From positions 1 through 56,257 of the IMG/VR virus record IMGVR_UViG_3300037478_000584: DNA of 56,257 nt, one strand, 5' to 3'. Numbering within the stretch: the stretch's first letter is position 1; each line of letters opens with the position of its first letter. Below are positions 2,782-54,158 of this stretch, piece after piece. The notes beneath the pieces were generated by a model. That model did no database searches. It saw nothing but the letters and a program-made list of their open reading frames with translations, and had not been told where the DNA came from. Source of the stretch: a virus (lineage: Duplodnaviria > Caudoviricetes). A program made the position numbers and the translations under genes.

Positions 2782-3020
2782 ACGTCCTTCTATTGTCCGA
2801 GGTGGCCGAACACGAGCGCGACCTGGCGCGCCAACTCCTGGCCATGGCGCGCGAGCACACCATTGGCGATGTGGTGAGCATCGACACGCAAGGGCCGGAG
2901 CCGTTCGGGATCTGGCTCGGCGTTGGCGACGAAGATGACGACCTGATCGGCACCGGCGAGACGCTCAGCGAGGCGATGGCCGATGCGATCGTGACGATGC
3001 GGAAGTGGGAGGCGCGATGA
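2778..3020 (+). CDS. hypothetical acidic protein
   Basis: GTGA overlap, GAGG RBS. Confidence 0.6.
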   Translation: MNVLLLSEVAEHERDLARQLLAMAREHTIGDVVSIDTQGPEPFGIWLGVGDEDDDLIGTGETLSEAMADAIVTMRKWEAR

Positions 3021-15726: not shown

Positions 15727-15757
15727 GCTTATGAGGTGTGTTTAGGTTCAGTACGCT
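15727..15757 (+). promoter_or_regulatory. GCTTATG-class promoter (TTATGA-17-TACGCT), leadered with GAGGAGG RBS
   Basis: Seen in sequence. Confidence 0.65.
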
Positions 15758-15798
15758 GCCCGTTGTGTGGGAACTTCGGACAGCGAGGAGGTGAACGC

Positions 15799-18413: not shown

Positions 18414-19007
18414 CCCAACCACGGTCCGCAACCAAGCGGGCCGCACCACTTCAAGCGCGCGCTCCACGGACGCCACGGTCCGGAGGTATTCGCTGTCCGT
18501 CATGCCGCCGCCGTTCAGTTGGATGGCGATCTGCGCCCTGTTGCTGGAGAACTCGAAGCCAGGCGGACCGGGGTTGATGCCTGGCCACCACGAGAAGATG
18601 TCCGCGTCGGCCGGAACGGTGAGCGCCACGAAGGCATTGCCCGCTGCGTTCTCCGCCGCAGCCTCGATGTCCGCGATGGTGTGGCCAGCCAATCCGCGCA
18701 GCTTCGAGGCCAGCGCGTCCCGTCGGCGCCGTCGCGAATCGCTACGTCGCGGCCGCAGATTGCAGGCGCGCTCGTAGCTCTCCAACAGGTCCGTCATCTT
18801 CCGCGGGATCAGCGCATTGCCGAAGCGGCGGTTGATCTGCCAGATGATCGTGACCGCCATCGCATCGGTGCCGACCTCGGCGTACAGCTCCGTGTCGTCC
18901 GAGATGTCCCAACCCGGCGACAGCGCGTCTAGGAGCGCTTGGTGCTCTACGTCGACGATCGTATCGGCGCCACCGAAGCGCCACGGGAAGCGAGCAGGGA
19001 AGCGCAT
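18348..19007 (-). CDS. baseplate wedge protein (Mu gp48/DUF2313-like)
   Basis: MTDLLESYERACNL...RRDALASKL, VRPAW; synteny after baseplate J. Confidence 0.7.
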   Translation of the reverse strand: MRFPARFPWRFGGADTIVDVEHQALLDALSPGWDISDDTELYAEVGTDAMAVTIIWQINRRFGNALIPRKMTDLLESYERACNLRPRRSDSRRRRRDALASKLRGLAGHTIADIEAAAENAAGNAFVALTVPADADIFSWWPGINPGPPGFEFSSNRAQIAIQLNGGGMTDSEYLRTVASVERALEVVRPAWLRTVVGLGTGPGTSFVVNQGIVGWTII

Positions 19008-19010
19008 CGG

Positions 19011-19520
19011 TCAGGCGAAGTCCCAATCGATCGTGATCGGGTCCGTGCTGCTATCGCCGACGTCGGCCAGGGTTGCCTTGGGCGACTCGACCTTGACCGT
19101 GACGACGTTTGCCGAGATGGTGAGCACCTCGGCGTACAGGTCGTCCGTCTCGTCTCCAGACCGCGGCGTGACGCGACCGGTGAAGAGCGAGACGGTCTCG
19201 GTCGCGTCGAGGCCATTCGTCCACGAGACCGGGAAGGTCAGCGTGTAGAGGCCGGTCGCGGTCTTCGACACTGCGGGCTTGGTCGCTCCGGCGCTGCCCC
19301 AATGGGAGCGGTGCGAGACGTTCGCGGCGTCGACGGTGGTTGGCGCAGCGGTCGCGGTCGAGATGAACGTGCCGCGCGTATGCGAGGACGTTTGCGAGCC
19401 CTGCGCAACGGACTCCAGCAACAGGTTGCCGTAGTCGGCGCTCATCTCCGATTCCGGATCGGCGACTGGTACGGCGTCGACGAACGCGCCGCCGAGGTCA
19501 GCTAGTGTGAGTTGCTGCAT
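19011..19520 (-). CDS. hypothetical tail/baseplate protein
   Basis: 169 aa within the baseplate operon. Confidence 0.55.
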   Translation of the reverse strand: MQQLTLADLGGAFVDAVPVADPESEMSADYGNLLLESVAQGSQTSSHTRGTFISTATAAPTTVDAANVSHRSHWGSAGATKPAVSKTATGLYTLTFPVSWTNGLDATETVSLFTGRVTPRSGDETDDLYAEVLTISANVVTVKVESPKATLADVGDSSTDPITIDWDFA

Positions 19521-19523
19521 GGG

Positions 19524-21050
19524 TCAGACCTTTGCCCTAACGCTCAGATTCTGAATGGTGATCATGTTGGGCGCGTCGGCCGTCGTGGCCGGAACGCTAG
19601 GAGTCGTTTGCGTGGTGGTGGTGCCGGTTGCGGTACGGCTCGCGTACGAGACGTCGAACACCTCGGCGTGCGCATTGCTGATTGCGGACAGCGCCGTCGT
19701 GGTGAGCGCGTAGGGTCGCTCTACGTCGGGCGCTGGCTTTCGCCTGGCGTACCGCAACAGGTCCGCGTCAGCCGTCTTCTCTCCGGGTCCGAGCGTCTTC
19801 ACGTAGGCCACGAATGCGTCGGCGTATTCCTGGAGTTTCTCGGCCATTGCGCTACAGCGGGCGCCGACCACCACCTTGCCGAGCAGTGCGGACTGTTGTG
19901 AGTCGACAGTGATCACGTAGGCGCCGGACGAACCGCCGACGCCCACCGCGGAGAATTCGTAGAGCGCCTCGTCGTCCGCGTTCCAAACCGCAAAGCGATT
20001 GCCCGCCGCTGGGGGGTCCGCGCTGGTGCTGTTCACCGTGAGTGAATTGCTACCAACCGCCGTGACCTCGGCCCAAACGTTGGCGCCGTTCTCCGCATCG
20101 GATGGCCACGGAGACGAATCGGTCCAGCCCCCACCGGCGCCGCCCGCTAGGACGGGATACGGCGTGCTCATGTCGATCACGGCATCCAGCGGCTCGAGCG
20201 CGACGCTCGTGAGGTTCAGTGCCTCGTCAATGCTGCCGGGCATTGCAGCTCGTACCGTCGCAGCGGCAATGGCCTGCGTCGCAACGTTCAGCACCAGGCC
20301 GTCAGCGTCGCCCACGATGGCCACGTCGTATGACGAAGGGCCGCGCATGGTCGGATAGACGAACGCCTGATCGACGCTGGCCGATGCGTCCTCGGCCGTC
20401 TGCGCGACGAAAGACCAGTTGCCGCCGCCTACCGGAAAGCCGAGGCGTCGCAGCAGTCGGACGCGCAACTCCTCTTCGTCGTCCGCCTCGCGCCCGCCAT
20501 CGATGCCGCCGGCCGCGACGGTTGACTTCGGCTTGAGGTTGGCGACCGATGCGCTGTCCCAGGTGAGGAACGTGCCGGCCGCTGCGTCGACGTCGCCAGC
20601 GTCAACTGACTCAACCGCAACGGTGTCGCCGGTGATAGCGGTCGGGTACGCGGCGGTCGTCTGGTAGGTGATGCCTGCCGGCGACGTTGCCTTGTAGCCG
20701 ATCGGAATCGAGACGGAGCCGTCCGCACCGGTCTCCAGCGTAACGGTGACGAACCCGGACGCCTTCGACGCCTCACGACCCGTCACGCCGAAGAACCGCG
20801 CGAGCTTGATCAGCGCGTCGCCGGTCGCCTTGTACGGATCGATATCGCGCAGCCGTAGCTGACCGTTCGCCAGTGCCAGGCTGATGCGGTTCGCCAGCGC
20901 CTCGCACCGCTTGTAGTGCGCCGACCCGCGCTTGACGTTGACCGTGACGCCCTGGCGCGCATAGCGATAGCGCAGGTCGTTCAGGAGCTGGTCGCGGATC
21001 TCGTCCACGGTCGGCAGGCGCTCTGCCGTGACTGCGAATTCTGTAGCCAT
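19524..21050 (-). CDS. baseplate J-like protein (Mu gp47)
   Basis: ATGDALIKLARFFGV, GGREADDEEELRVRLL, GGGN...AFVYP..RGP. Confidence 0.9.
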   Translation of the reverse strand: MATEFAVTAERLPTVDEIRDQLLNDLRYRYARQGVTVNVKRGSAHYKRCEALANRISLALANGQLRLRDIDPYKATGDALIKLARFFGVTGREASKASGFVTVTLETGADGSVSIPIGYKATSPAGITYQTTAAYPTAITGDTVAVESVDAGDVDAAAGTFLTWDSASVANLKPKSTVAAGGIDGGREADDEEELRVRLLRRLGFPVGGGNWSFVAQTAEDASASVDQAFVYPTMRGPSSYDVAIVGDADGLVLNVATQAIAAATVRAAMPGSIDEALNLTSVALEPLDAVIDMSTPYPVLAGGAGGGWTDSSPWPSDAENGANVWAEVTAVGSNSLTVNSTSADPPAAGNRFAVWNADDEALYEFSAVGVGGSSGAYVITVDSQQSALLGKVVVGARCSAMAEKLQEYADAFVAYVKTLGPGEKTADADLLRYARRKPAPDVERPYALTTTALSAISNAHAEVFDVSYASRTATGTTTTQTTPSVPATTADAPNMITIQNLSVRAKV

Positions 21051-22564
21051 CAGGATGCCGTGGAGACGATCGATTGAAGCGCCGCGCCTTCTTGCGCACC
21101 GCTCGCACCGCCGAGGATGTGGACGAACTTCGCCGGAGCGACCCGCGGCTCATCGGCACTCGTGTCGCTACCGTCGCCAGTCGTCGCGCCGCTTACCGTG
21201 AGGGTGACGCCGGTCGGGAGGTGGCGCGCCCGCACGGTGAGCGCCTGGTCGCGGCTGAACGTGACGGCGCCAGCCGCTGCGACCTCGGTGCCGTGCAGCA
21301 CGAAGTGATAGCTATCGTCCGAGCCGTCGTAATAGACGCGATTGTCCGCGTCGATGTGGATGACGTCGTGCTCCCCCGTGACCTCGTCGTACGCATAGAG
21401 CGGGGCGTACGTGACGGTCAGGTCGAACCAGCCGCTTGGTGCTACGGCCGATGCGAGCGCTTTGGTGTAGCTGGCCGCGCGGGTGAACGTGGCGTTGTCG
21501 GCGCCGATGAAGCTTGTTGGGTAGCTGCGCGCTTCAAGCTGCATGCCCCAATAGCGACACGATCCAGTGTCAGCACCAGATGACCTTGGTGTGATGCGTA
21601 CGAAGGTTCCGTCGCTCGCCGTAGTCCCCGCGCTCGTGGCCGATGCAATCGATGCGGTAGCGTTCCGATAGGTCCAATCGTCGTCTTCGGAGGAGAACGA
21701 AACGGTCGCGTGGTTGACGCCCGCCAACTGATCGCGCAGCAGGAATTGCGATGTCCCCGTGGCACCGAGCTTTTGCGCCCACCCAGACACGTTCCACGAC
21801 CCTTCGATCGATCCAACGATCGAGACCTGCGACTCAGCCGACGCGCTGTCGTCCTCAGCCTCGCAGCCCTCGGTTGTGCCCGCGGGGGTGGTCGCAGCAT
21901 TGAACGTTAGCGGGAATCCGCCGAACTGTGTCCAGTCCTCAACGGGCGCCGGTTGCGAAAGGTTCGTCGCGTCCACCTCGTTCAGCAGCCCCCACGCCAC
22001 ACCGTCGCGCGAGAACCCGCGCGCAGCATTCGCTGCGAACCCGGTCTCGACGGAGCTGGCCGACGTCTGCGCGCTGGTCTGCGCCGTGGCGCATTCGTGC
22101 GTGAGCCACGACGTGAGGGTGAGCGTTCCGTCTGCGGTTGGCGCCGCGGCAGTCCACGACACGTCGCTCCACTTCGGACCGGAGACGGTGAGCGACACGT
22201 CGGTGCTTCGCAGCACGTCGTAGTACTTCGCCTCAACGCGGCTCCGTCCGGCGCCTACCGGATTGACGAGGATCCGAACGTTTCGGATCGTTCCCTCATT
22301 GACCAACTCGGCGAGCGCCTCTTGACCACGTTGCTTGAGCCGGTTGAGGCTGCGCGTATCGAGGAAGCCGGTCGGCTCGTAGATGGCGAACGATAGGAGC
22401 GTTTGGACGCGTTGCGCCGTCTCGCGCATCGGCAGGTTGTTGCCGTCGCTGTCCAGCTCGTACCGGCCCGTGCCGAAGTTCACCGACTCGCTGCCGACGA
22501 GCTTCGTCGTGGCAGGAGACGGCAGGGTCGCCTGCTCGGCGTATGGTCCGCGCGCGAAGGCCAT
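21050..22564 (-). CDS. gp46/gp25-like baseplate protein fused to carbohydrate-binding-like domains
   Basis: N-terminal ~130 aa (QRVQTLL...EALAELVNEG) followed by WGMQLE...TSFI..TRAA module. Confidence 0.6.
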   Translation of the reverse strand: MAFARGPYAEQATLPSPATTKLVGSESVNFGTGRYELDSDGNNLPMRETAQRVQTLLSFAIYEPTGFLDTRSLNRLKQRGQEALAELVNEGTIRNVRILVNPVGAGRSRVEAKYYDVLRSTDVSLTVSGPKWSDVSWTAAAPTADGTLTLTSWLTHECATAQTSAQTSASSVETGFAANAARGFSRDGVAWGLLNEVDATNLSQPAPVEDWTQFGGFPLTFNAATTPAGTTEGCEAEDDSASAESQVSIVGSIEGSWNVSGWAQKLGATGTSQFLLRDQLAGVNHATVSFSSEDDDWTYRNATASIASATSAGTTASDGTFVRITPRSSGADTGSCRYWGMQLEARSYPTSFIGADNATFTRAASYTKALASAVAPSGWFDLTVTYAPLYAYDEVTGEHDVIHIDADNRVYYDGSDDSYHFVLHGTEVAAAGAVTFSRDQALTVRARHLPTGVTLTVSGATTGDGSDTSADEPRVAPAKFVHILGGASGAQEGAALQSIVSTAS

Positions 22565-22848
22565 TAGACGATTGGGAGGTCCACGTCGGTGCCGCCCGCG
22601 TTTACCATTGCGTCAACGTCAGCGATGCGGGCCGCGCCGTTGGACTGGATGTAGCCGACGAGCGTAGCGATGGGGCCAGCAATGCTCGCGAACGCTTTCT
22701 TGATCGCGGTGCCGTGCTCGCCTGACGGGATGGTGTTACCGTCCGCCTGGTAGCGCGCAATGAACGCGTCGTACAGCTCGCCAGCGGCGCCGCTCTTCGT
22801 GACGGTGCCGGCGGAGTTCACCGTTACGGTGCCTTCGGTCATTGCCAT
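22564..22848 (-). CDS. hypothetical baseplate-region protein
   Basis: 94 aa; AFASIAGPIATLVGYIQSNGAAR. Confidence 0.55.
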   Translation of the reverse strand: MAMTEGTVTVNSAGTVTKSGAAGELYDAFIARYQADGNTIPSGEHGTAIKKAFASIAGPIATLVGYIQSNGAARIADVDAMVNAGGTDVDLPIV

Positions 22849-22855
22849 GGTGGAG

Positions 22856-23161
22856 TCAGGGATCGAGAGGACAGGAGAGGGAAGGGAAGGGCGGAAGCGA
22901 GAAGCCTGGAATCGAAAAGGCGGGCAGTGGAATCGTGAAGGTCGGGATCGAGAAACCTGGCAAGTCAAGCGAAGGAAGTGAGGGCAGGGACGGAAGCGCG
23001 AATGCTGGGATCGCGAGGGTTGGGAGCGGAATCGTGAAGGCCGGGATCGAGAAGCCCGGAAGGTCCAGCGAGGGCAGCGACGGCGGGGACGGGAGGGAGA
23101 ATCCCGGGATGGCCAGCGTCGGCAGCGGAATGCTGAACGCTGGGATCTGACAGAGACTCAC
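22856..23161 (-). CDS. Pro/hydrophobic low-complexity repeat protein
   Basis: Repeated IP(A/G)FSIPLP.. units; GTGA overlap with the spike gene. Confidence 0.65.
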   Translation of the reverse strand: MSLCQIPAFSIPLPTLAIPGFSLPSPPSLPSLDLPGFSIPAFTIPLPTLAIPAFALPSLPSLPSLDLPGFSIPTFTIPLPAFSIPGFSLPPFPSLSCPLDP

Positions 23162-23820
23162 GGGGCCGCGAACACCTTCGACGAAACGACGTTGACCGGA
23201 CCGCCAGGAGCAATCGCCACCGCAGTGGCCGGAGTGGGCGGAACCGGTACGCCACCGCCCATGTCGCCAAGCTGCACCGACGCCGCCACGGCCTGAATGG
23301 CATTCGTGAGCATCGCAATCGATTGCTTGTTGAGCGTGATTGAAGCTCCGCCATTGACGGCCAGCACAATCTCCTCGCGGCCGATGCTGATGAAGGTGGC
23401 ACCGACGGTGAGGACGATCTGATCATTCTCGCCGTCGTTGATGATCATCTGACTGTCGCCAGACGCGGCACCCTTCGTGTACGCGATGACCTGATCGGTG
23501 TCGCGCTTGACGAGCAGTTTAGCTTCGCCGTCCGTAAAGATCGCAGTGTCGCCTGGCTTCAGCGTGCCAGCCTGCGCTGCAATGCGGTTGTCTTGCGCGG
23601 CGAATGGTACCCGCTGGTCGTCGTCCTCGGCGCAAAGAACCTGCGCCGCCTCGCCACCTTCCGGCAGGAGCGGAACGCTTACGACGTTCGCCAGTCCGAA
23701 CATGGGCGCATTCGCCGAGAACCCCTTCTCGCGAAACGCATCGCCCACACGGAGCGTCACGGCGCCGTTCGGCTGCACGTCGATGCCGACCACGTCGGCA
23801 ATGGTGTATTCGCGAGCCAT
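23158..23820 (-). CDS. baseplate spike/assembly protein V (Mu gp45-like)
   Basis: G.ANVVSVP...QVL...DNR...LKPGDTAIF; synteny. Confidence 0.75.
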   Translation of the reverse strand: MAREYTIADVVGIDVQPNGAVTLRVGDAFREKGFSANAPMFGLANVVSVPLLPEGGEAAQVLCAEDDDQRVPFAAQDNRIAAQAGTLKPGDTAIFTDGEAKLLVKRDTDQVIAYTKGAASGDSQMIINDGENDQIVLTVGATFISIGREEIVLAVNGGASITLNKQSIAMLTNAIQAVAASVQLGDMGGGVPVPPTPATAVAIAPGGPVNVVSSKVFAAP

Positions 23821-24545
23821 CAGGAGGGCATCATCGTCTCAAGCAACGGAGCCCATTGGATGGCCCCGTCGCTCTGGCGACGACAGTAGAGGTGCACATT
23901 GGTGAGCAGCCGGAAGAACGCTTCGACGGTGATGGTGTTTGCCGCCACGCCGAAGACCGAGGTGGCCAGCGCTGTGTGAGACAGGATCACCGTGCCGCTG
24001 AACGTGTCGCCGGCCTCGTCTGGTTTCTGAGCGAGAGCGAAGTATTGGCTCGCGCCTTCGTCGGTGCGCTGCGACAGATACCAGTCGTACTCGTCGCTGC
24101 CTGGCGTTCCGTCTGCGGCCTCGCTGTTGGCCGTGATAGTGACCGGTACGCCCTCGAACGTGGTTGTCGATCCGGTGAGCCCGCCGTCGAAGCTGTTCGC
24201 TCTGACGAGGTTCGTGGATGACGTTGCGCCGGGGTACTCCGGCTGTCCGTCCGGATCCTCGCGCCAGAAGGTGATCGTGACGGTGACGGCCGATTCGCTC
24301 GTGAGGTCCGTGTCGACAACGAGCGTCTCGTCGTCGAACGATACGACCGTGAGCAGGATGGCATCGTTCGATGCTGAGCCGCTGATGACGGCGCGCATCC
24401 CAACCTCGATACCAAGCGTGTCCCAGTCGGTGGCGAGGCGGATGATCTGATTGTCGGCACCGTCCGCGATGTTCACGCTCTGCGTGTTTGCGATACGGAG
24501 CGCGAACCGCTCGCGGAAGTCCGAGTGTGTTGGGAGGACGGCCAT
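23820..24545 (-). CDS. hypothetical virion protein
   Basis: 241 aa acidic beta-rich ORF between hub and spike. Confidence 0.55.
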   Translation of the reverse strand: MAVLPTHSDFRERFALRIANTQSVNIADGADNQIIRLATDWDTLGIEVGMRAVISGSASNDAILLTVVSFDDETLVVDTDLTSESAVTVTITFWREDPDGQPEYPGATSSTNLVRANSFDGGLTGSTTTFEGVPVTITANSEAADGTPGSDEYDWYLSQRTDEGASQYFALAQKPDEAGDTFSGTVILSHTALATSVFGVAANTITVEAFFRLLTNVHLYCRRQSDGAIQWAPLLETMMPS

Positions 24546-24547
24546 GG

Positions 24548-25765
24548 TTACGCGCTACGTAGGTCCAGGGAGTTAAGCGGAACCCACGTCAGCTCGGTGT
24601 GCTGTCCGCCCTGCCGCTTGGCGTGCTTGGTGGTTTCTAGAAGCCACATGCGCTCATCGATCGCGATGTCGTTCACGACGACGCGGCCCACGGTGTCGAT
24701 CGTCCAGATGTGTTTCGTCTTGCTAACGAGCCCGTCGACCGTGCACTTCACCTGGAAGCCGGAGGCGGCGCGCTGCATCGCAACCATCCGCGCCCACGAG
24801 ACGCACCGATCGACGTCGCGGCACTTGTCGTCGCGCATCATGTGCGGCTTGTACGGAGAGAAGCGCGAGCGATAGAGATGGCGGCCCGGCTTCAGCGCCT
24901 CGAACTTGTCCTTGCCGAACGGAAGGTCTGCGTCGAGCGTGTAGTCGGGGATGATGACGCCAGAGACAGGAGGCGATGCGCTGGTAGCCTTGGCTCCTTT
25001 CGGTGCCTTTCCTACAACGACGTAATGAGAGAATTGGCCATCGTTCGTGTCAGACCACGAGATGTCTCCAGTCATCGGATCGCCGGCGTACACGCCACGA
25101 ACCTGCTCCACCGTGTAGGCCGCGGCCTGGTCAAAGTCTGGCTGACCGAGGATTAGCCGCCCGCGTCTGTCGGTACGCAGCGCGAGACCGAACCGACTGA
25201 ACAGCGCCGCAGCGTACTGGTAGGCGCTCGCGTTGCCACCATGAGGCGCCTTGAAGTCCTTTAGCTTGACGTCAGAGAGAACGACTGGATCGGCGCGACC
25301 AGAGAGGCTTTTCCCGCTGATGGCCGCAACGTCTGCGGCAGTGTCGGTCTCTAGCGAATCGAAGCCGTAGGGGCGCAGCACGTCGAGCACCACGCTTTCA
25401 AGCGGCGTGTCGACGTCCAAGTTCTTGCCGTAGAATGGATCGACGGCGCCCTCGACCGCTGCGTGCAGGAGCGTCTTGCACGTGACCTGCAGCGTCCACC
25501 CGTTGCGGCGCGAGATGCTACCCTGTACGCTCGTCACCTCGGCGGTGGCTTGCTGGCTCCCATTGATCCAGAGCGTGACGCGCTCGCCCTTCTGGAGGCG
25601 CGAGAGGTAGCTGTCGCGCTTGGCAACGTTTGGGTTGCTGACTACGAACTGGAGATCGTCGACAGGCTGGATGTAGTTCTGCCGCAGCGTGACGCTATCC
25701 CATACGGTGATGGGGTCGCGGTCCGCGAAGCGAAGCTCTACGGTTGCTCGGTTCTTCTCGCTCAC
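24548..25765 (-). CDS. baseplate hub/tail protein (Mu gp44/gpP-like)
   Basis: WDSVTLRQ...LRTDRRGRLIL...FSHYVVVG...IWTIDTVGRV..GGQHTELT. Confidence 0.8.
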   Translation of the reverse strand: MSEKNRATVELRFADRDPITVWDSVTLRQNYIQPVDDLQFVVSNPNVAKRDSYLSRLQKGERVTLWINGSQQATAEVTSVQGSISRRNGWTLQVTCKTLLHAAVEGAVDPFYGKNLDVDTPLESVVLDVLRPYGFDSLETDTAADVAAISGKSLSGRADPVVLSDVKLKDFKAPHGGNASAYQYAAALFSRFGLALRTDRRGRLILGQPDFDQAAAYTVEQVRGVYAGDPMTGDISWSDTNDGQFSHYVVVGKAPKGAKATSASPPVSGVIIPDYTLDADLPFGKDKFEALKPGRHLYRSRFSPYKPHMMRDDKCRDVDRCVSWARMVAMQRAASGFQVKCTVDGLVSKTKHIWTIDTVGRVVVNDIAIDERMWLLETTKHAKRQGGQHTELTWVPLNSLDLRSA

Positions 25766-31203: not shown

Positions 31204-32751
31204 TCAGACCTGAGGCGACGCTTCCTGAATGGAGACGTCGGTGCCGAGGTTGTGCTGCACAGCGAACAGCGTCACGACGGTCGGGAACCGGCCCGCTCCG
31301 TCGTATTGCACGCTGAGTCGCGCCTTCATCTCAGCGAGACGAGACGGCGCGAGAATGGGCCCCTGGTAGCGGCCCTGTAGCGGCGCGCTGCTGCACAGCG
31401 AATCGAACAGGCCTTCCCACATGCCTCGAACGAGTGCGGGAACGGTGGTCTTTGCAGGAGGCGGAACGTCGCCCGTCGGATCGAAATCCGCGAACGGCTG
31501 GCGAATCTGCGCCCAGCGCTGCCGCGCCTCGTTCCAGACGAAGTGCGCCACGCTCGCGATGTGGCCCTCGCGCGCCCGATAGTCGTTGTCGCCGTCGTCG
31601 TTCATCGATCGATTCGTGATGAACCGCTTCATGACGACGCGGCCCTTCTCGACCGCGAGCGGCGTCACGCCGTTGTTGAGCTGCGACTTCTGCTCGGTGC
31701 TCGTCGGGTAGTCGGCAGCGTCGAGTGGCGCGGGAATGCCGGCCATGACGATGCCATTCGTGTTCGCCCCGGGATGCGCGATCTCCTGCGCACGGACCGC
31801 TGCGCACGTGTACGCGGCGATCTGTCCGGGAAGAAGCGGACAGTCCTCCAGTTGAATGCCGTGCGCGTACACGGAGTTCATTGGCGAGGCGACCGGGACC
31901 GTGGTGCTCTCTGCGCTGGTGCCGACCATTCCGTAGAAGAGCCGCATGTCCTTGCCGTTGATCGGCAGGGCCTGATTGGTGATTGCGACCTGCAACTCGC
32001 CGAGGCCGTTGTCAGTCGCGGTTGGCGCCTGCACGTCAGTCTTGGCCGCGACGACGTAGTAGATGTCGTCGAGGTTCGACAGCTCGATGATTGCGTTCGT
32101 CCAATCGTCCTCGGTCGCGCCGCTCGTGAGCGTCGACTTCGTGATCGTCTGGCCGTTGTCGCCGAGCGCCGTAACGGTCAGCTCGTTGAGGACATGGGTG
32201 CCGCGCGTCCCCTTGTGGGAGAATGTGACGTCGACCTTGTAGTCCGGCCCGCCACCGTCGATTGCGGCAACCGCCGTGACGGGAAGTTGCCCACCATCGT
32301 AGCTGTTGATCGCATCGGCGACGGCCGTAGCGGTGGTCGTCTCCTGGTCGCCGGACGCAACCGGAACGAAGATGCGCTCGCCGAGGAAGTCGATTCGCCA
32401 GCCACTGACCGAATCGCTGTCGTCCGCGATGACGAGCTTCAGCGCCGCCGCGGTGCCGCCCGATTCGGCCACCGGAATGGCGCGGATCTCGACGTCCTGC
32501 GCCACCATCATGAAGCGACGGAACATGGCGTGCGCTTCGGACCGGGAGCCGAACAGCGCCCTGCTGTCCGCGTCGCTTTCGATCGGGTCCGTGATGACGT
32601 CCGCCGTTGCGGTGCCGGCGGCCGTCAGGTTGCCGATCAGAACGACCTTGCGCTCGTCGGAGATGCCCGCACCGACGCCGGCCGCGAATACGAACTCGCG
32701 TGCGACGCGGGGCAGCGGATCGCTCGGATCCAACCCAGTCAGTCCAGCCAT
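31204..32751 (-). CDS. contractile tail sheath protein (Mu gpL-like)
   Basis: KVVLIG..TAAGTA, ALFGSRSEAHAM, EQKSQLNNGVTPL, RFIT. Confidence 0.9.
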   Translation of the reverse strand: MAGLTGLDPSDPLPRVAREFVFAAGVGAGISDERKVVLIGNLTAAGTATADVITDPIESDADSRALFGSRSEAHAMFRRFMMVAQDVEIRAIPVAESGGTAAALKLVIADDSDSVSGWRIDFLGERIFVPVASGDQETTTATAVADAINSYDGGQLPVTAVAAIDGGGPDYKVDVTFSHKGTRGTHVLNELTVTALGDNGQTITKSTLTSGATEDDWTNAIIELSNLDDIYYVVAAKTDVQAPTATDNGLGELQVAITNQALPINGKDMRLFYGMVGTSAESTTVPVASPMNSVYAHGIQLEDCPLLPGQIAAYTCAAVRAQEIAHPGANTNGIVMAGIPAPLDAADYPTSTEQKSQLNNGVTPLAVEKGRVVMKRFITNRSMNDDGDNDYRAREGHIASVAHFVWNEARQRWAQIRQPFADFDPTGDVPPPAKTTVPALVRGMWEGLFDSLCSSAPLQGRYQGPILAPSRLAEMKARLSVQYDGAGRFPTVVTLFAVQHNLGTDVSIQEASPQV

Positions 32752-33433: not shown

Positions 33434-33982
33434 CTAGAGGAGCGCTCCGGCGCCGGTCTGAATCCAGCCCACCGCCGCGCTACGGTACTTGCACTCGATC
33501 CACTGCTCGGTTGCAGCGTCCAGCACGGCAATCGTCGAGGCGTCCAGCCCGTTCTTGACCGTGACGGTGAACGCGGCCGTGTCGTTCCGCACGATGCGGA
33601 TCGTGTCGCCCGCGATGGCGCCAGCGGTGCCGAGCGTGAGGGAGCGATTGTCCGTGAGCGGAACGCTCGGGAGCACGCGCACCAGGCCGTCGGCCACCGT
33701 GATGGTTGCGTCCGCGTCGCCCAGGTCCGCACCGAAGCGGTTGGCCACGACCCGAATGAACCGGCCCGCAGTGCCGCCGCCCGTGGGGTTGACGACGTTG
33801 AAGCCGTCAGCCGTCGAGGTGTCGTGCGGTACCCAGCGGTACAGGTCGCCCGTATCCTCCAGCACCACCCACTTCGCGGTCGGCTCGCCAGGCTCCTGCG
33901 CGAGCTTGGCCAGCGACGTGGTGCCGCTCGGCGCAGCAATGACCGTCGCGCTACGGCGGCCGTATGGGGTGCGGAGCGTCAT
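33434..33982 (-). CDS. virion decoration/fibre-like protein
   Basis: LYRW...TADGFNVVNPTGG..GRFIR; DNRSLTLGTAGAIAGDTIRIVR. Confidence 0.55.
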   Translation of the reverse strand: MTLRTPYGRRSATVIAAPSGTTSLAKLAQEPGEPTAKWVVLEDTGDLYRWVPHDTSTADGFNVVNPTGGGTAGRFIRVVANRFGADLGDADATITVADGLVRVLPSVPLTDNRSLTLGTAGAIAGDTIRIVRNDTAAFTVTVKNGLDASTIAVLDAATEQWIECKYRSAAVGWIQTGAGALL

Positions 33983-33983
33983 T

Positions 33984-34023
33984 GCTTATGGTGGTGCGCG
34001 GCGTGGCTTACAGTGGCGGGATG
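33984..34023 (+). promoter_or_regulatory. GCTTATG-class leaderless promoter (TTATGG-17-TACAGT-6-ATG)
   Basis: Seen in sequence. Confidence 0.7.
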
Positions 34024-34398
34024 AACACTCAACGAAACGAACCGCGTACGTGGACCGTGCCGGAGCCGGAGGGACCGCGAAGTCTCGCACGGGCCGACGG
34101 CGCCTTCGTGCTGGTCAATGGCTGGCAGCTACGGTACGATCCGGAGCCGGAGCACCGTGCCGCAGTGACGGCGGAGTTCCGGGCCGAGCACCAGTGTGGG
34201 CGCAGCAGCGGACCGAACCGGGCCGAAGTGCGACGGCTCTATGCGACCAGTCGCGGGCGGGCGGGGAAGTTGGCGGACCGTGAAGGGGACAGGGCGCGAC
34301 TGATGTCCGCGTTGCTGCCTGGCGGCGCCCCGGTCAGCGACGAAAAGGAGCGGGCCGCGAGGAATCGGGCCAAGGCGAAGCGGAGGGCGCGGCGGTGA
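34021..34398 (+). CDS. hypothetical protein with basic C-terminus
   Basis: Leaderless ATG; C-terminus RNRAKAKRRARR. Confidence 0.55.
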   Translation: MNTQRNEPRTWTVPEPEGPRSLARADGAFVLVNGWQLRYDPEPEHRAAVTAEFRAEHQCGRSSGPNRAEVRRLYATSRGRAGKLADREGDRARLMSALLPGGAPVSDEKERAARNRAKAKRRARR

Positions 34399-34619
34399 AG
34401 GAACGGAATCGACGCGCCGACCTCATCGCGCTGTGCGACTTGTTCATCGGCGGCATCAGGTCAGGTTATGAGGAAGACGCGCCACGCCTCAACGGGCGAG
34501 AGGCGCTCGGACTGTCCAGGTCTGACCCAGACGACGAGGCCTACTTCGAATCGCTGGGCGTGGAGATGGTCCCGTTCCTGCGTGAATTCTGGCTGGAACT
34601 GCGGGGTCGCGATGTGTGA
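34395..34619 (+). CDS. hypothetical protein
   Basis: GTGA overlap, GGAGG RBS. Confidence 0.55.
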   Translation: MKERNRRADLIALCDLFIGGIRSGYEEDAPRLNGREALGLSRSDPDDEAYFESLGVEMVPFLREFWLELRGRDV

Positions 34620-34881
34620 CCACAATGACACCGTTCCGCTGCTCGTGTTCCTGCCGGCGAGTCACTCGCACACCGGCGAGGGACGATGGGTCACGAAGCC
34701 GGTTGACCGCTGTGTCGCGCCGTTGGTTGACGCCTTGAACCGGCACGGGGTGCTCACGCTCTCGTCTTGCTGTGGTCACGGCAAGGGGCCAGGGTCGATC
34801 CGTCTGCAAGACGGGCGGGAGTTGGCGGTTCACGAGCAGTTCGTGACCAGCAAGCCGCTCAACTTTGGGGCGCAGCAGTGA
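34612..34881 (+). CDS. phage protein of the D.C.A.LV.ALN..G..T..SCCGHG family (Tyw3-N-like motif)
   Basis: VDRCVAPLVDALNRHGVLTLSSCCGHG. Confidence 0.65.
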   Translation: MCDHNDTVPLLVFLPASHSHTGEGRWVTKPVDRCVAPLVDALNRHGVLTLSSCCGHGKGPGSIRLQDGRELAVHEQFVTSKPLNFGAQQ

Positions 34882-35120
34882 GCCAAGAAACGAGGGCGCC
34901 CGATTGGCTCTCGCACTGGTACCAGGCCCAGATCGCCGATCTATGGCACGTCCCTGTAGACGACGTTACCGTGACGTCGTGGAAACCGGGAGACGGCGTC
35001 AGGGCGACGGTGACGGTGCACCAGCCTGTTCACCGGGTGACGTTCACGATCCAAGAGTGCGAACCGGAGCCGGACGCTACGGAGCCGCCACCCTCGGCAC
35101 CGCCCCGCGACGCCCCCTAG
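34878..35120 (+). CDS. small protein, weakly sheath-C-terminus-like
   Basis: VRATVTVHQPVHRVTFTIQ; GTGA overlap. Confidence 0.5.
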   Translation: MSQETRAPDWLSHWYQAQIADLWHVPVDDVTVTSWKPGDGVRATVTVHQPVHRVTFTIQECEPEPDATEPPPSAPPRDAP

Positions 35121-35298
35121 CGAGCCACAGGAGCGCTTCCGCCATGTCGGCGGGGCGCTCGTAGCCTTGCAGGTACAAGTCGCGGCACACCGCCTCAACG
35201 TCGCCGCGAGGCGTATCGGGAAACGAGGCGCGGACCGTGGTGAGGAGTGGCGCGCGGTGGGCGTGCCAGAGGGCAGCGAAGGGGTCAGGCATCGCCAA
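35077..35298 (-). CDS. small protein resembling ECF sigma region 2
   Basis: FAALWHAHRAPLL...GDVEAVCRDLYLQGYE...LLWLAR. Confidence 0.45.
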   Translation of the reverse strand: MAMPDPFAALWHAHRAPLLTTVRASFPDTPRGDVEAVCRDLYLQGYERPADMAEALLWLARGRRGAVPRVAAP

Positions 35299-35605
35299 TC
35301 ACCGTGAAGTGGTCAATCACTGCGCTCGGGCGACGCATCGGGACGACGCGGTCCGTCGTTTCGCCACGCGTGATGTCCCACCGCTCACCGTTCGGAGGCA
35401 CGTCGCCGGGCCACCGTGGGTACCAGTGTGGAGTGTGCGGCACGCATGGCAGCGGTCCGATCACGGGACCGCCCTTGCGAAGCGCTTCCTCGATCTGCTC
35501 GCCGACGGTCTTGGCTTGCTGCGGCACGCATGGGCACCGCTCGACACCAGGCGCGACGCCTCCGTTGCATGCTGGACAGAGCCAGCCTTTGCGGTCAGCA
35601 CTCAT
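35285..35605 (-). CDS. zinc-ribbon phage protein
   Basis: GWLCPACNGGVAPGVERCPC. Confidence 0.6.
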   Translation of the reverse strand: MSADRKGWLCPACNGGVAPGVERCPCVPQQAKTVGEQIEEALRKGGPVIGPLPCVPHTPHWYPRWPGDVPPNGERWDITRGETTDRVVPMRRPSAVIDHFTVIGDA

Positions 35606-35786
35606 CGCATGTCCCAAGGTCGCACGCGCCGTAGAAGGTGTCTTCCGCGACGGAGCGCTCAATCTCGCGCGCGACGCGTTGCCGCTCGCTCCGCTTGGCG
35701 GCGCGGTAGTGCTCGGTCGGCACCTTGCCGTCGCAATCCATGTTGGTTGCGTCGCGCGAGACGCGGCCTTTGATGTGGGTCGTCAC
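35595..35786 (-). CDS. hypothetical protein
   Basis: GTGA overlap with the upstream ORF. Confidence 0.5.
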   Translation of the reverse strand: MTTHIKGRVSRDATNMDCDGKVPTEHYRAAKRSERQRVAREIERSVAEDTFYGACDLGTCDEC

Positions 35787-36274
35787 AGGAACGGACTCCG
35801 CTCGCCGATGCTCTTAGCTTCGAAGTAGTCGCGGCCCGCGTCTTTCACGAGGCGCTGTAGCAAGAACTCGCCTTGCAGCGTGTCGTTGCATCCCACCTCG
35901 CGACAGGCGAGCGTGACGATGCGCCTCTCACGCATCACCGTGCGCAGGTACCCACGGTGCTCGTCGGAGAGTGCCAACGACCCATGTACCGTGACGCTTT
36001 CGACGGGAGGCATCGAGTCGTCGCGCCCTACGATCGTGTCAGGAATCGGCGACACATCCTCGATGCGCAGGTCGCGGCAAAGGCTGACGAACATCCCGTC
36101 GACGAACACCGCCACCGATTCGGGGCGCGACTCACCGGCCAGGTTCATGGCGTCCACTTCCGCCATGGCCTCGCGCAAGCAAAGCAGAGCGGTCGCCTCG
36201 TTCTTGCCGCTACCGGTCAGCGTTACGGTGACGCCAGCGGCAGGAGACTTGTCGATGCGAATCGTGCGGCTCAT
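35783..36274 (-). CDS. diverged tail-tube paralog with N-terminal extension
   Basis: Colinear motifs shared with 30812..31192 (see findings). Confidence 0.65.
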   Translation of the reverse strand: MSRTIRIDKSPAAGVTVTLTGSGKNEATALLCLREAMAEVDAMNLAGESRPESVAVFVDGMFVSLCRDLRIEDVSPIPDTIVGRDDSMPPVESVTVHGSLALSDEHRGYLRTVMRERRIVTLACREVGCNDTLQGEFLLQRLVKDAGRDYFEAKSIGERSPFL

Positions 36275-36534
36275 GCCCGCGCCCCTTCCCACCGCCACCC
36301 CATGGCGCCCAACGTCTCGCCGCGGTCCAGGCCGTGCAGCACCCCGAGAAGGTGCGCGTCGGCCTGGTGCAGCAGCAGCGTGTGCATGAGTTGCTGACGG
36401 AACAGGATCGCGTCCGTAGCGGTCAGGAGCGGCTTGGTCGCCTGGCAGTACGACGGGGAATCGTAGCGCTGCGATTCCACCTCGGCGTTGATGCCGGCGA
36501 TGGTGGCGCCGAACTTAATAAGGCGGGACGTCAC
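36271..36534 (-). CDS. small protein resembling a major capsid protein segment
   Basis: GINAEVESQRYDSPSYCQATKPLLTATDA vs MCP GEAARVHETRGTDSYVCANRAFTDALDA. Confidence 0.5.
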   Translation of the reverse strand: MTSRLIKFGATIAGINAEVESQRYDSPSYCQATKPLLTATDAILFRQQLMHTLLLHQADAHLLGVLHGLDRGETLGAMGWRWEGARA

Positions 36535-36812
36535 TTGACGGACTCCGGGACGATGCGAGTCACAGTGAAAATCGCAGCAGGAGCTGGAAAGAGTCCAGCC
36601 CCGTCGTACTCAACAGAAAGGAGTCGATCCATTTCCTTCGAGTGCTCCGGGCCCGCTACCTTGAAATCCAATGCGTCGAAGAACTCCGACAGCGCGACTC
36701 CAAGTGCGACGATGGCTTCGGCCTCACCATCGGAGCCAATGGACTCTTTGAGGGCAACGTGCCTTTCCTCAATCGCATCCCGAAGCGCGTAGAGGTTCCT
36801 TTGGCTCTTCAC
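36531..36812 (-). CDS. stand-alone copy of the tail sheath C-terminal region
   Basis: LSVEYDGAGLFP vs sheath LSVQYDGAGRFP; GTGA overlaps at both ends. Confidence 0.75.
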   Translation of the reverse strand: MKSQRNLYALRDAIEERHVALKESIGSDGEAEAIVALGVALSEFFDALDFKVAGPEHSKEMDRLLSVEYDGAGLFPAPAAIFTVTRIVPESVK

Positions 36813-37381
36813 TTGACGCGCTCCAGCGCGACGGTCGGGTGCTTCTCGGTCTCGGTTGCTGCGTACTTGCCGCCGCTGAACGGATTGTACCGCTCCACTT
36901 CGCGCTCGCACGTGGCAATACCATCCGTGACGTCTACGACGACCTTATGCAGTCCGCCGCTCTTGAGCCGCACGACGTCGCCCGGTTCGATGGGGCGGTC
37001 GCCGATCTTGATGGTCTCGCCCATGATGTTGACGGACCAAACTCGGTTGCTCGGGTGTCGGCGGGCTACTCGGCGATTGCCGACACGTTCCACGCGGGGC
37101 AACGCGAGCGCATCGCACCGGTCATCCTTGCTGCAATCGTGCAACTCGCGGCGCAACTCCTCGGCCTTCGCCGCGTCGTCGTAGGCCATCTGGCGGACCG
37201 TGTCGGACAACTCTGCAAGCTCGATCGCAAGGTCGTCACGAAGGGCTCTGCGCTGCTCGTACTCACCAGCCGTGCAGTCGTAGAAGATGTGGGCGCCAAG
37301 CACAGCGTCAGCCGCCTTGATCGCCGAGAGGTGTTGCCGAAGGGCGTTATGCAGCTCGTTGCTACGTGGCTTGAGTTTCAC
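36809..37381 (-). CDS. hypothetical protein with C-terminal YodC/DUF2158-like domain
   Basis: PGDVVRLKSGG. Confidence 0.6.
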   Translation of the reverse strand: MKLKPRSNELHNALRQHLSAIKAADAVLGAHIFYDCTAGEYEQRRALRDDLAIELAELSDTVRQMAYDDAAKAEELRRELHDCSKDDRCDALALPRVERVGNRRVARRHPSNRVWSVNIMGETIKIGDRPIEPGDVVRLKSGGLHKVVVDVTDGIATCEREVERYNPFSGGKYAATETEKHPTVALERVK

Positions 37382-37575
37382 TTCGCACCCCCGAGCAGCT
37401 CACGCTTCGCACAGTCTCCGCACGTGGCGAAGCTTGACGGCGTGGTCTCGCCGGGGCGCATCCACACGAGGTCGCCCGCCTCGATGGTGTCGTCGCATTC
37501 GTGGCACGGAACTTCGCAAAGCACCATGTCGAAGTGTCCCGTGTGGCTGATGTGGTCGGTTGCGTTGCTATTCAT
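37378..37575 (-). CDS. small zinc-binding protein
   Basis: CHECDDTIEAGD...CGDC. Confidence 0.6.
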   Translation of the reverse strand: MNSNATDHISHTGHFDMVLCEVPCHECDDTIEAGDLVWMRPGETTPSSFATCGDCAKRELLGGAK

Positions 37576-37613
37576 GCCGCCACGTATCGCACGCCATCGC
37601 GCCGCCCATAAGC
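37573..37613 (-). promoter_or_regulatory. GCTTATG-class leaderless promoter (TTATGG-17-GATACG-7-ATG; weak -10)
   Basis: Intergenic motif heading the 37575-35077 operon. Confidence 0.55.
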
Positions 37614-37614
37614 G

Positions 37615-37962
37615 TCACGCAACGCGAATCAGCTTCACGGGCAGCGGCAATGGCTCACCATCGTCACCGTCCGGGCCGTCGTCGTCGCCCGCCGCATCCC
37701 ACTCTTGCAGGTGGATGATGCACGTATCGTCAATGCCGAACTCGATCGACATGACCGCCATCATGAACGCCCACGCGCGCCCGCCCAGTTCGGCCAGCAC
37801 CGCAATGAGCGTATCGTCACGGAGGTGTGGCCAGCACGCGTCAATCAGCACGCTGTCGGCGCTGCACTGCACGCGAATGGCGGGCTGCTTGTCATGCGAC
37901 AGAGCGAGCGTGAATGCTGCGCCGATGTCCGATGCGTCGCCGATCTGGAGGGAGCGGGTCAT
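37615..37962 (-). CDS. hypothetical protein
   Basis: ATGA overlap with the 37959 gene. Confidence 0.5.
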   Translation of the reverse strand: MTRSLQIGDASDIGAAFTLALSHDKQPAIRVQCSADSVLIDACWPHLRDDTLIAVLAELGGRAWAFMMAVMSIEFGIDDTCIIHLQEWDAAGDDDGPDGDDGEPLPLPVKLIRVA

Positions 37963-38732
37963 GGCTCTTGGTCCTCGCTCCCGTCCGGGCCGGTCAGGAT
38001 CCCGTCCTTGACCTGCACACCGTCCTCGTACAGGTCGGCGTCGTAGTCGCGCAGCACGTCGTCCGGCTCGACCAGTTGCTTGCCCTCGATTAACTCGCGG
38101 ACACGGAACATGGCGACGAATGCCGGATAGTCTCGGCCCGATACGCGGCGGCCAACGTCGCGGGTGTTCGCGTCGTCAATGCCGATCCGCTGCACACCTT
38201 GCCCGCCGAGCCATTCCCACTCGACGCCGTACGGTGCGTCCCATGATTCGTCGAGGGGCGTGCCGAGCGGGCGCGAGTTGTAACTCCACGTCGGGTGGTA
38301 GCCGTTCCGTGACGCTTTGGCGAATGCCGCGTCGACCGCATTGAACACGCCGCGCCGGTCGTCGAGCGCCGCTTCTTTCGGGCGCTCTTCGAACACGTAC
38401 ATGGCATGCACGTTCCGCTCGCGACCCTTCTGCACGATGCTGGGGTTCCACGGTACGGAGCGGCCGTCCCACCACAGATAGAGGGCAGGCACGTGGCGCA
38501 CCACGAAGTTCGCCTCGCGCTCGTATGGCGAGAAAGCGAACCGGTTCGCAGCGGGACAGGCGTCCGAGTTGTAGCCCGATACGTTGGCTAGTCGCGTGTC
38601 CAGCGCCTCTTTGATGTAGTGCGCCAGGAAGCTCAGCAGACCGTCGAGGAACGGATCGTCGACAGCGGCAGGCGCGGTGCCGGCCGTGATCGGAATCGTG
38701 AGCGCGCCGACGCGTGACGTTTCGGTGGGCAT
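37959..38732 (-). CDS. putative head-tail joining/tail terminator protein
   Basis: 257 aa, VPALYLWW; position downstream of the gp36-like gene. Confidence 0.55.
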   Translation of the reverse strand: MPTETSRVGALTIPITAGTAPAAVDDPFLDGLLSFLAHYIKEALDTRLANVSGYNSDACPAANRFAFSPYEREANFVVRHVPALYLWWDGRSVPWNPSIVQKGRERNVHAMYVFEERPKEAALDDRRGVFNAVDAAFAKASRNGYHPTWSYNSRPLGTPLDESWDAPYGVEWEWLGGQGVQRIGIDDANTRDVGRRVSGRDYPAFVAMFRVRELIEGKQLVEPDDVLRDYDADLYEDGVQVKDGILTGPDGSEDQEP

Positions 38733-48225: not shown

Positions 48226-48302
48226 TGGGGTCGGCTGCTGGATTTGAACCAGCGTCCTTCGGGTTATGGGCCCGACGCGCTACCGAACTGCGCCAAACCG
48301 AC
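48226..48302 (-). tRNA. tRNA with CAT anticodon (Met/fMet-like, atypical)
   Basis: Cloverleaf: GTCGGTT/AGCCGAC acceptor, GCGC D-stem, TCGGG-CCCATAA-CCCGA, GCTGG-TTCAAAT-CCAGC, encoded CCA. Confidence 0.88.
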
Positions 48303-53292: not shown

Positions 53293-53329
53293 GCCGCAAT
53301 CCTCTCACGCTACACCGCGCCCCATAAGC
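53290..53329 (-). promoter_or_regulatory. GCTTATG-class leaderless promoter (TTATGG-17-GAGGAT-6-ATG)
   Basis: Seen in sequence, overlapping the end of the RuvC-like gene. Confidence 0.6.
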
Positions 53330-53853
53330 ATGGCCATGCGCACCACGTCGCTTTCGCGGCACGCCAGCACGGCCGCAACGGCATCGGCCGCATGCTCCAC
53401 GTCGCCCTTGTTCTTCGGCCACGTCACGTCGGGGAACCATTCCTCGACTGCGATGCGGACCTCCTCTTTGCTGGCGTTCGCCTTGCCGACCAGCGTCTTT
53501 TTGATCTGTTGCGGACTGGCCTGCACGATCGGCACGGCCCACACCTCAGCGAGCGTCGACACCGCGCCCCAGCCCATGCCAATCTTGGCCGCGACGCTAC
53601 TCGACCGAGGGAAGCTCATCGCCTCGGCGCAGATGACCACAGGAGGCGGTGCGCCAACGAACCCCAGCACGAACCGCACCAGCTCGCGGCAACGCCTAAC
53701 GTTGTCGTCTGAGGCGTATGGTGCCTGTTTGCCGCTGAGCTTCTCGGTTCGGAACGTGGCGACGCGGTCCAGTTCGAGGATGCCCCCCACGATCGACACC
53801 CGAGCGGCGCCGAACGTGGCGAGACCCCCGTCTATGCCGAGGAGGTAGGTCAC
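53305..53853 (-). CDS. ruvC: RuvC-like Holliday junction resolvase
   Basis: LLGIDGG...ICAE...SPQQIKKTLVGKANASKEEV...HAADAVA. Confidence 0.85.
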   Translation of the reverse strand: MTYLLGIDGGLATFGAARVSIVGGILELDRVATFRTEKLSGKQAPYASDDNVRRCRELVRFVLGFVGAPPPVVICAEAMSFPRSSSVAAKIGMGWGAVSTLAEVWAVPIVQASPQQIKKTLVGKANASKEEVRIAVEEWFPDVTWPKNKGDVEHAADAVAAVLACRESDVVRMAMLMGRGVA

Positions 53854-54158
53854 GTGCCGCGCCTCCACAGTTGCGCCGCGCCCCACATCGCTACGGCCGC
53901 AGATGTTGCAGCGATCGACACGGTCGCAATCACCATGTCGTTACGCTGCTCTCCAAGTGCGATCAGGATGCCGACCAGAATCATGACGAAAAGGACTGCC
54001 CCGCCGATTGCCGCGGTAAGGCCGATCGCTTCCTGGATCTCGGTCAGCCCCTCGTCGTCATCCTCCGACTCGTTGGGGTCATCCTCGCACAGTGCCTCCA
54101 CGGCACGCAGCCGCTCGTCGAGTTGCTCCAGCGTGAGCGCCTTGGTTCGGTAGCTCAC
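53850..54158 (-). CDS. membrane protein
   Basis: Two TM segments. Confidence 0.55.
   Translation of the reverse strand: MSYRTKALTLEQLDERLRAVEALCEDDPNESEDDDEGLTEIQEAIGLTAAIGGAVLFVMILVGILIALGEQRNDMVIATVSIAATSAAVAMWGAAQLWRRGT

Follow-up and report, generated by a model that had tools for sequence, protein, structure and literature searches.

In phage Mu, sheath rings are joined by a handshake in which a two-stranded domain I sheet of the next ring takes up two arms, the amino-terminal arm (N-arm) of one subunit and the carboxy-terminal arm (C-arm) of the subunit beside it (PMC11915804). Two other Mu proteins offer strands at the sheath ends. The first, gp46, resembles sheath domain I and presents a two-stranded sheet to the first-ring arms. 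It belongs with T4 gp25 and TssE to the gp25-like initiators (PF04965), which are small and free-standing, resemble the inner domain of the sheath and provide a two-stranded sheet for the arms (PMC11915804). The second, the tail terminator gp37, is encoded upstream of the sheath and has a C-terminal hairpin, a strand-turn-strand that joins the sheath beta-sheet and supplies the two strands missing from the last ring (PMC11915804). Can a piece of the sheath itself also occur as a small separate gene? The question is raised by P0001, the working name of a 93-residue open reading frame (ORF) on the minus strand of an uncultivated Mu-like myophage. The DNA analysed, here called the window, is the entire IMG/VR virus record IMGVR_UViG_3300037478_000584, 56257 bases long with an estimated completeness of 97%. 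Residues of about 52 to 86 of P0001 are very probably homologous to residues of about 464 to 498 of the sheath of this phage, as judged from the sequence comparisons below. P0001 is read here, tentatively, as a lineage-specific mosaic small gene in which a sheath-derived piece has been kept at the peptide level and which is a possible modulator of the sheath handshake. The evidence is far better for the origin of P0001 than for its function.

P0001 has likenesses to both types of Mu protein. It shares with the gp25 type its small size, its free-standing form and a segment that, judged by position, would lie ahead of the C-arm in the sheath; it differs in that only about 30 residues are sheath-like, PF04965 does not match it, its gene lies between head and sheath genes rather than in the baseplate module, and relatives lack it. 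Its C-terminal block has a strand-turn-strand pattern in sequence, as does the end of gp37, but terminators are conserved and essential, whereas P0001 occurs in no relative and its body is predicted to be helical and not tube-like. In sequence, P0001 matches neither a solved chain nor a known family.

Accessory genes of the late operon that act on tail assembly are known from temperate phages and satellites: the Tab/anti-Tab systems and the similar Tai/anti-Tai systems (PMC10884400, PMC11364771). In the former, the blocker gene is on the opposite strand within the late operon, and the antidote gene, on the late strand, has a one-base overlap with the gene before it (PMC10884400). The insertion that carries P0001 also has opposite-strand members and coupled late-strand members within the late operon. 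It differs from these systems in showing no sequence relation to them by PADLOC and no sign of lysogeny, and sheath mimicry has no counterpart in what is available of the two accounts.

Phage genomes also harbour mosaic orphan genes, which arise by illegitimate recombination. P0001 is like these in being a short GC-deviant cassette (GC, guanine plus cytosine) with short end repeats within a lineage-specific insertion. It is unlike them in that, although its third codon positions are randomised, its peptide still resembles a structural protein of the virion that the phage itself builds.

The sheath-like block of P0001

The 515-residue protein to which P0001 is compared is a sheath by profile match and by the tube gene directly next to it (Table 1). 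It has 80 homologues, whose source names include ‘gpL-like’, and the PDB chain that it matches, 9khy_a, is a ‘Tail sheath protein’. In its AlphaFold2 model (predicted local distance difference test, pLDDT, 88.3), helices are at residues 398-416, 438-452 and 469-478, this being the last helix, and residues 479-515 are extended. BLASTP aligns P0001 residues 55-84 without gaps to sheath residues 469-498, with 15/30 identical residues, 32.7 bits and an expect value (E) of 7e-07 for a single comparison, and when all six frames of the phage genome are searched, the sheath match falls at 36549-36659 with E 4.3e-4. The Smith-Waterman score of 76 is reached by none of 3000 shuffles of P0001 (mean 31.1, standard deviation 4.7, maximum 56; Gumbel P 3.3e-6), and when the sheath is shuffled instead the Gumbel P is 2.3e-6. 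In an all-against-all comparison of 102 likely ORFs, P0001 and the sheath form the top non-self pair; against sheath residues 401-515, the runner-up among the 101 other ORFs scores 42.

The resemblance extends to the sheaths of a narrow clade. A profile built from the four closest sheath relatives (P0004-P0007, 63-75% identical, from contigs outside the set of 57 related loci), with the phage's own sheath excluded, finds the P0001 frame at E 2.6e-4 over 35 positions, and the runner-up among 1043 six-frame pieces reaches only E 0.35. P0001 matches 12-16 of the 30 positions in five narrow-clade sheaths and 4-11 in the other 24. Two of the residues that it matches are specific to P0006 and absent from the phage's own sheath. 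A second copy of the own sheath end was found in none of 51 related loci (best 20.4 bits).

How much of the sheath is represented? The preliminary description had presented P0001 as a free-standing copy of the tail sheath C-terminus. The 93-residue ORF is there, and the figures given for its 12-codon core are exact in coordinates, identities and codon differences, but the sheath-like part comes to about 30-35 residues. P0001 residues 1-54 against sheath residues 380-468 score 19, the shuffle mean being 19.8 (P 0.53). The part of the hhalign alignment that reaches into the N-terminal half (columns 12-54) was rejected on this figure, and the anchor formerly drawn between FFDAL and LFDSL is unsupported because this half shows no similarity to the sheath. 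The last 17 residues of the sheath, including the invariant H500, have no counterpart in P0001, which also lacks the conserved motifs that come ahead of the last helix in the sheath. P0001 has local homology at sheath residues 469-498, but it does not match the family profile and does not have a complete inner domain and C-arm.

The codons of the block have diverged unevenly. Over the 30 codons, identity is 18/30, 20/30 and 8/30 at positions 1, 2 and 3, or 46/90 nucleotides in all; positions 1 and 2 differ from position 3 with Fisher P 0.001, and the proportions of synonymous (pS) and nonsynonymous (pN) differences are 0.83 and 0.37. P0001 agrees with the sheath at 10 of 13 clade-invariant positions and at 5 of the 17 that vary (Fisher P 0.013), a pattern that is expected if the two peptides share a constraint. 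A recent intragenomic duplication of DNA is excluded on these sequence figures, because third positions are at the random level, pS far exceeds pN and about half of the nucleotides differ. To this extent, the earlier statement that the codon differences reflect selection on the protein and not recent DNA duplication is upheld. Part of it needs amendment, however. The eight changed core codons end in A or T seven times in P0001 and once in the sheath, a directional difference, and P0001 has a low GC content at third codon positions (GC3, 0.64), so that the synonymous divergence reflects in part a different compositional history.

Is P0001 translated? This is fairly probable from coding statistics and signals. 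Its codon log-odds score, 0.249, is the top among six frames (confident genes: mean 0.455, fifth percentile 0.204), the score based on amino acids only is 0.411 against a training (gene) mean of 0.296, and GC at the first and second codon positions is 0.66 and 0.40. A GTGA stop/start overlap occurs at both ends of P0001, each with GGAG 8 nucleotides before it. P0001 coincides with the region's deepest GC trough (0.565-0.575). A non-coding reading of this trough was considered, for which neither an Rfam family nor a promoter-like site was found (no sigma-70-like promoter in 35500..38000), and it was rejected because the peptide-level match needs the P0001 frame. A weak terminator-like hairpin lies inside P0001 at 36674..36691 on the minus strand (7 pairs, 3 of them G-C); 35500..38000 has three such sites, with 1.2 expected.

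A single-sequence AlphaFold2 prediction gives P0001 helices at residues 2-24 and 30-47 (pLDDT about 76-78) and 55-65, then a tail. The order of predicted elements, three helices and an extended tail, agrees with that of sheath helices 398-416, 438-452 and 469-478 and the extended end. The first 50 or so residues are modelled as a helical hairpin unrelated to the sheath.

Several observations weigh against the proposal of a retained, working gene. In composition, the GC3 of P0001 is below that of its neighbours (0.79-0.89), and its codon score is near the fifth percentile of genes. The GGAG is weak evidence for translation because a Shine-Dalgarno-like tetramer precedes just 8 of 29 confident genes, compared with 10.5% of random positions. 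The sheath-like part is modelled at pLDDT below 50, and a structure search of the Atlas with P0001 gives no usable fold for residues 51-93. The codon-position and invariant-site arguments are weakened because the block was picked for identity, which biases pN downwards. The wider profile searches are also unfavourable. A family-wide sheath profile (29 sequences) gives P0001 only E 2.5, so the pairwise and profile alignments that had been proposed as a check bear out the resemblance for the pair and the narrow clade but not for the family. hhalign of P0001 with the sheath gives E 0.0026 at a probability of 11.7%, library-wide phmmer with P0001 brings up no sheath, and Pfam and PHROG families at E up to 1, among them those of the sheath (PF04984, PF17482 and phrog_165), and likewise PADLOC, give no match. 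P0001 is an orphan: among 13 candidates from 5.8 billion clustered proteins only P0001 itself is a homologue, and 1.84 billion representatives yield itself and three repeat proteins only, the latter rejected as compositional. GenBank phages (one match at E 5) and IMG/VR hold no homologue, nor do the 57 related loci, where the best, non-significant matches are the sheath ends of L020 and L051. The phage is seen in two sediment samples only, with identical sequence and hence zero population variation, and the sequencing runs listed as containing it include none of RNA. Finally, an estimate over all ORF pairs is that about 0.01-0.04 such matches are expected per window, so that across many windows one will sometimes arise by chance.

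Could the likeness of a short orphan ORF to the largest tail protein, picked from many windows, be such a coincidence? The match is only 30 residues long, and the phmmer and family-profile results and the expected number per window would fit a coincidence. It is nevertheless very unlikely. None of the shuffles attains the observed score, the Gumbel estimate is about 3e-6 and the pair ranks first among the 102 ORFs; a profile of four other sheaths recovers the frame, two P0006-specific residues are shared, and the matches are enriched at invariant positions. In addition, each block is found towards the C-terminus of its protein and comes after a predicted helix, a nearby ORF is independently tube-like, and the 51 control loci yield no comparable match.

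Cassette, insertion and neighbouring genes

P0001 is a 278-base-pair (bp) low-GC cassette between 10-nucleotide direct repeats (Table 1). The exact 10-mer occurs only twice in the 56257 bases, and the similarity of the two copies (family D16) extends to 18/23 over 23 nucleotides. The upstream gene ends in a sequence that recurs in P0001 as its last 7-8 residues and its stop/start junction. If the cassette is removed, the 190- and 87-residue ORFs are joined by the same stop/start overlap.

The cassette is itself part of a lineage-specific insertion of about 4 kilobases (kb). The two conserved genes that flank it are 3977 bp apart in the window and -18 to 694 bp apart in 25/25 comparable loci, i.e. 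loci with both flank genes and the sheath present, at least 5 of the 25 being the same contig from two collections. None of nine minus-strand and none of four plus-strand ORFs of this island has a match in the 57 loci, and Pfam, PHROG and PADLOC give no family of note. Such spacings suggest that, in this group of phages, insertions have entered the neck-to-sheath region repeatedly. The gap between the homologue of the 182-residue gene and the sheath is enlarged in L043 (4167 bp), L054 (1628 bp) and L014 and L041 (1055 bp); elsewhere it is about 300-550 bp.

How did the cassette arise? Illegitimate recombination at the 10-nucleotide repeats might have placed part of the sheath gene of a related phage at the junction of two island genes. 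P0001 would then be a functionless relic, with a frame that stays open as stops are rare in 65% GC DNA and with any product lacking a role. Such an outcome is rather unlikely by itself, but it is almost as likely as the favoured reading. The orphan status, the low GC content and the direct repeats at both ends all fit a relic, as do the GC3 of 0.64 and the low codon score. The recognisable piece is about 30 residues, from which the preceding sheath motifs and the arm with the invariant histidine are gone, and the insertion is missing in all 25 comparable loci. Spurious long ORFs are common, since 460 ORFs of at least 50 residues occur in the window and about 102 pass the coding filter. Neutral decay, however, should hit the codon positions alike, which is not what is observed at the third position. 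The matches fall at clade-invariant positions, the amino-acid composition is more gene-like than that of the average gene window, and the stop/start overlap with GGAG has been kept at both ends. Should P0001 prove a relic, it would be a clean case of orphan-gene birth, in which a piece of a structural gene between 10-nucleotide repeats came to lie in frame behind a ready coupling signal.

Two genes downstream of P0001 is an orphan ORF of 171 residues that resembles the phage's tube protein, homologues of which adjoin the sheath gene in 37/57 related loci. BLASTP shows 23% identity over 100 residues (E 7e-06), the Gumbel P of 3e-5 is the best of all ORFs, scores against the closest foreign tubes are similar, and hhalign gives E 9.5e-4 over 92 columns. 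Four of 10 Atlas structure rows for this ORF are tube or Hcp clusters, at template modelling (TM) scores of 0.38-0.44 and with a model pLDDT of 0.57. The tube hidden Markov model (HMM) gives E 3.1, Pfam and PHROG give no matches, and the 5.8-billion-protein collection contains only the ORF itself. Its GC3 is normal (0.81), and its codon score is 0.298. To go by sequence likeness, it may represent a second, diverged tube-fold gene of the phage. Sheath-like followed by tube-like is the real gene order, and therefore an origin from the sheath-tube segment of a relative is favoured for this part of the island.

Might the two ORFs then be what is left of a diverged second pair of sheath and tube genes that still functions, for instance as an additional ring or cap at one tail end? 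The collinear similarities, and the GC3 and codon score of the tube-like ORF, would agree with such a remnant. The poor tube HMM value, the Atlas model confidence and TM scores below 0.5 do not, and an unrelated 87-residue ORF lies in between (seven tail-region proteins give no signal with it). The tails of relatives need neither gene, and P0001 is without most of domain I. Such a pair is highly improbable.

A different possibility is that the island is a defence or counter-defence module of the Tab/Tai kind, with P0001 as its partner in the late operon, a mimic of a sheath epitope that soaks up a tail-assembly blocker or a sheath-recognising host sensor, or spoils the sheath of a related competitor phage. 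The arrangement is suggestive: opposite-strand ORFs at 33964..35120 accompany small ORFs on the late strand whose stops and starts overlap, and the whole is lineage-specific. But PADLOC 2.0.0 (2023; it may not contain Tab/Tai) gives no matches for 10 island ORFs, the opposite-strand ORFs have poor codon scores (-0.13 to 0.16), and the search of 35500..38000 gave no sigma-70-like promoter. Lysogeny, needed by those systems, is not indicated because integrase and rve transposase profiles have no match in six frames of the whole genome, and the Tab target is the tape measure, not the sheath. A module of this kind is quite unlikely.

The 190-residue ORF upstream of P0001 has a likeness of its own. 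Its C-terminal 41 residues resemble the C-terminus of the flanking 257-residue gene, with 15/41 identities, a pairwise E of 0.001 and a Gumbel P of 3.5e-4. The likeness overlaps the weak DUF2158-like stretch and, at E 0.11 in the all-against-all comparison, is not significant.

Table 1. Positions of P0001 and of other features of the window
Feature	Positions	Strand	Remarks
P0001, 93 residues	36531..36812	minus	GTG start, TGA stop; public gene call gives an identical 93-residue product
Sheath-like block, P0001 residues 55-84	36561..36650	minus	aligned by BLASTP
12-codon core	36585..36620 (sheath 31282..31317)	minus	10/12 residues identical, 8/10 by different codons
Direct repeat, downstream copy, 10 nucleotides	36531..36540		P0001 TGA stop overlaps GTG of 87-residue ORF
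Direct repeat, upstream copy, 10 nucleotides	36809..36818		TGA stop of 190-residue ORF overlaps P0001 GTG
Tail sheath gene, Mu gpL type, 515 residues	31204..32751	minus	phrog_165 E 1.3e-44; PDB 9khy_a E 1.5e-19
Sheath residues 469-498, resembled by P0001	31258..31347	minus	last helix (469-478) and extended segment before last 17 residues
Tail tube gene, 126 residues	30812..31192	minus	PF06199 E 0.0031, below curated cut-off
Lineage-specific insertion, about 4 kb	33983..37958		9 minus-strand ORFs tested including P0001; also poorly scoring plus-strand ORFs
Flanking conserved gene, 182 residues	33434..33982	minus	homologues in 34/57 loci
Flanking conserved gene, 257 residues	37959..38732	minus	homologues in 27/57 loci
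Tube-like orphan ORF, 171 residues	35783..36298	minus	163 residues in a source call
ORF between P0001 and tube-like ORF, 87 residues	36271..36534	minus	similar to nothing tested
ORF upstream of P0001, 190 residues	36809..37381	minus	PF09926 (DUF2158), weak match, E 0.028
DNA polymerase III beta sliding clamp	55024..56154	minus	three domains, E about 1e-20 each
RuvC-like resolvase	53305..53886	minus	-
ResIII/DEAD helicase	15736..17157	plus	-
Transfer RNA gene	48229..48302	minus	Rfam RF00005, 64.6 bits; sole Rfam family in genome

Possible roles in sheath assembly

On the favoured reading of P0001 as a retained mosaic gene, the sheath-like piece would have come from a sheath gene of the clade. 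Illegitimate recombination with a relative whose base composition differs could have brought it in; alternatively, the sheath-tube segment was partly duplicated long ago. The piece would then have been retained at the peptide level and translated with the late genes. From its position only, the block is inferred to consist of a helix and the two strands that lead up to the C-arm, and not of the C-arm itself, so that the likeness would be to the acceptor side of the handshake and not to the donor arm. A helix-plus-hairpin of this kind might join by beta-sheet augmentation, either with the N- and C-arms of sheath subunits or with the hairpin of the tail terminator. By analogy with Mu, a handshake-type contact between P0001 and the sheath is possible though doubtful. 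Any role would be accessory because relatives lack the gene. P0001 might therefore be a dispensable modulator of sheath polymerisation that holds or caps free arms, rather than a structural necessity. The preliminary description had suggested that a lone copy could cap or poison sheath assembly or act as a decoy, and these roles are conjectures from sequence.

A more specific version is speculative and improbable. P0001 would be a soluble mimic of the handshake, an acceptor helix-hairpin on a helical handle, expressed late and holding or capping the N- and C-arms of the sheath. It might work as a chaperone that prevents polysheath from forming too early, or it might serve related phages that interfere with each other's tail assembly, as a weapon or a shield; the tube-like neighbour would belong to the same module. 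No description of a free-standing, non-structural handshake mimic was found in the literature, which was covered mostly by titles and abstracts. If P0001 is made and binds the arms, it would be the first such mimic found. It could then provide a natural tool to arrest or cap the contractile sheaths of phages, pyocins and related injection systems, and tail-assembly interference would be widened from the tape measure to the sheath.

The phage and its genome

The window has a GC content of 65.5%, and the minus strand carries most genes. Among these are a T4-type large terminase, a Mu-type portal, a ClpP-like protease, a major head protein (phrog_1005, E 2.1e-45) and an adaptor with a weak match to Mu Gp36. 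A tape measure is encoded, and Mu-like baseplate genes (GpP-like, Baseplate_J and Gp48-like) lie at about 18348..25765. When the whole genome was searched in six frames, GPW_gp25 (PF04965), the family of the gp25-like sheath initiator, had no match with an E of 1 or less. The initiator has either diverged strongly or been replaced in a baseplate that is otherwise Mu-like.

A second sediment metagenome, which comes from another study, contains short, low-depth contigs identical to the phage (window 29000..41600); the range of the phage extends beyond its source sample. The genome also encodes a sliding clamp, a resolvase and a helicase (Table 1), the sliding clamp being recognised by three domains at E of about 1e-20 each; it yields no integrase or rve transposase, although its virion genes are of the Mu-like kind. 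The second-best non-self pair in the 102-ORF comparison is formed by 2754..3020 on the plus strand and 23158..23820 on the minus strand, with 60% identity over 30 residues (E 3e-4).

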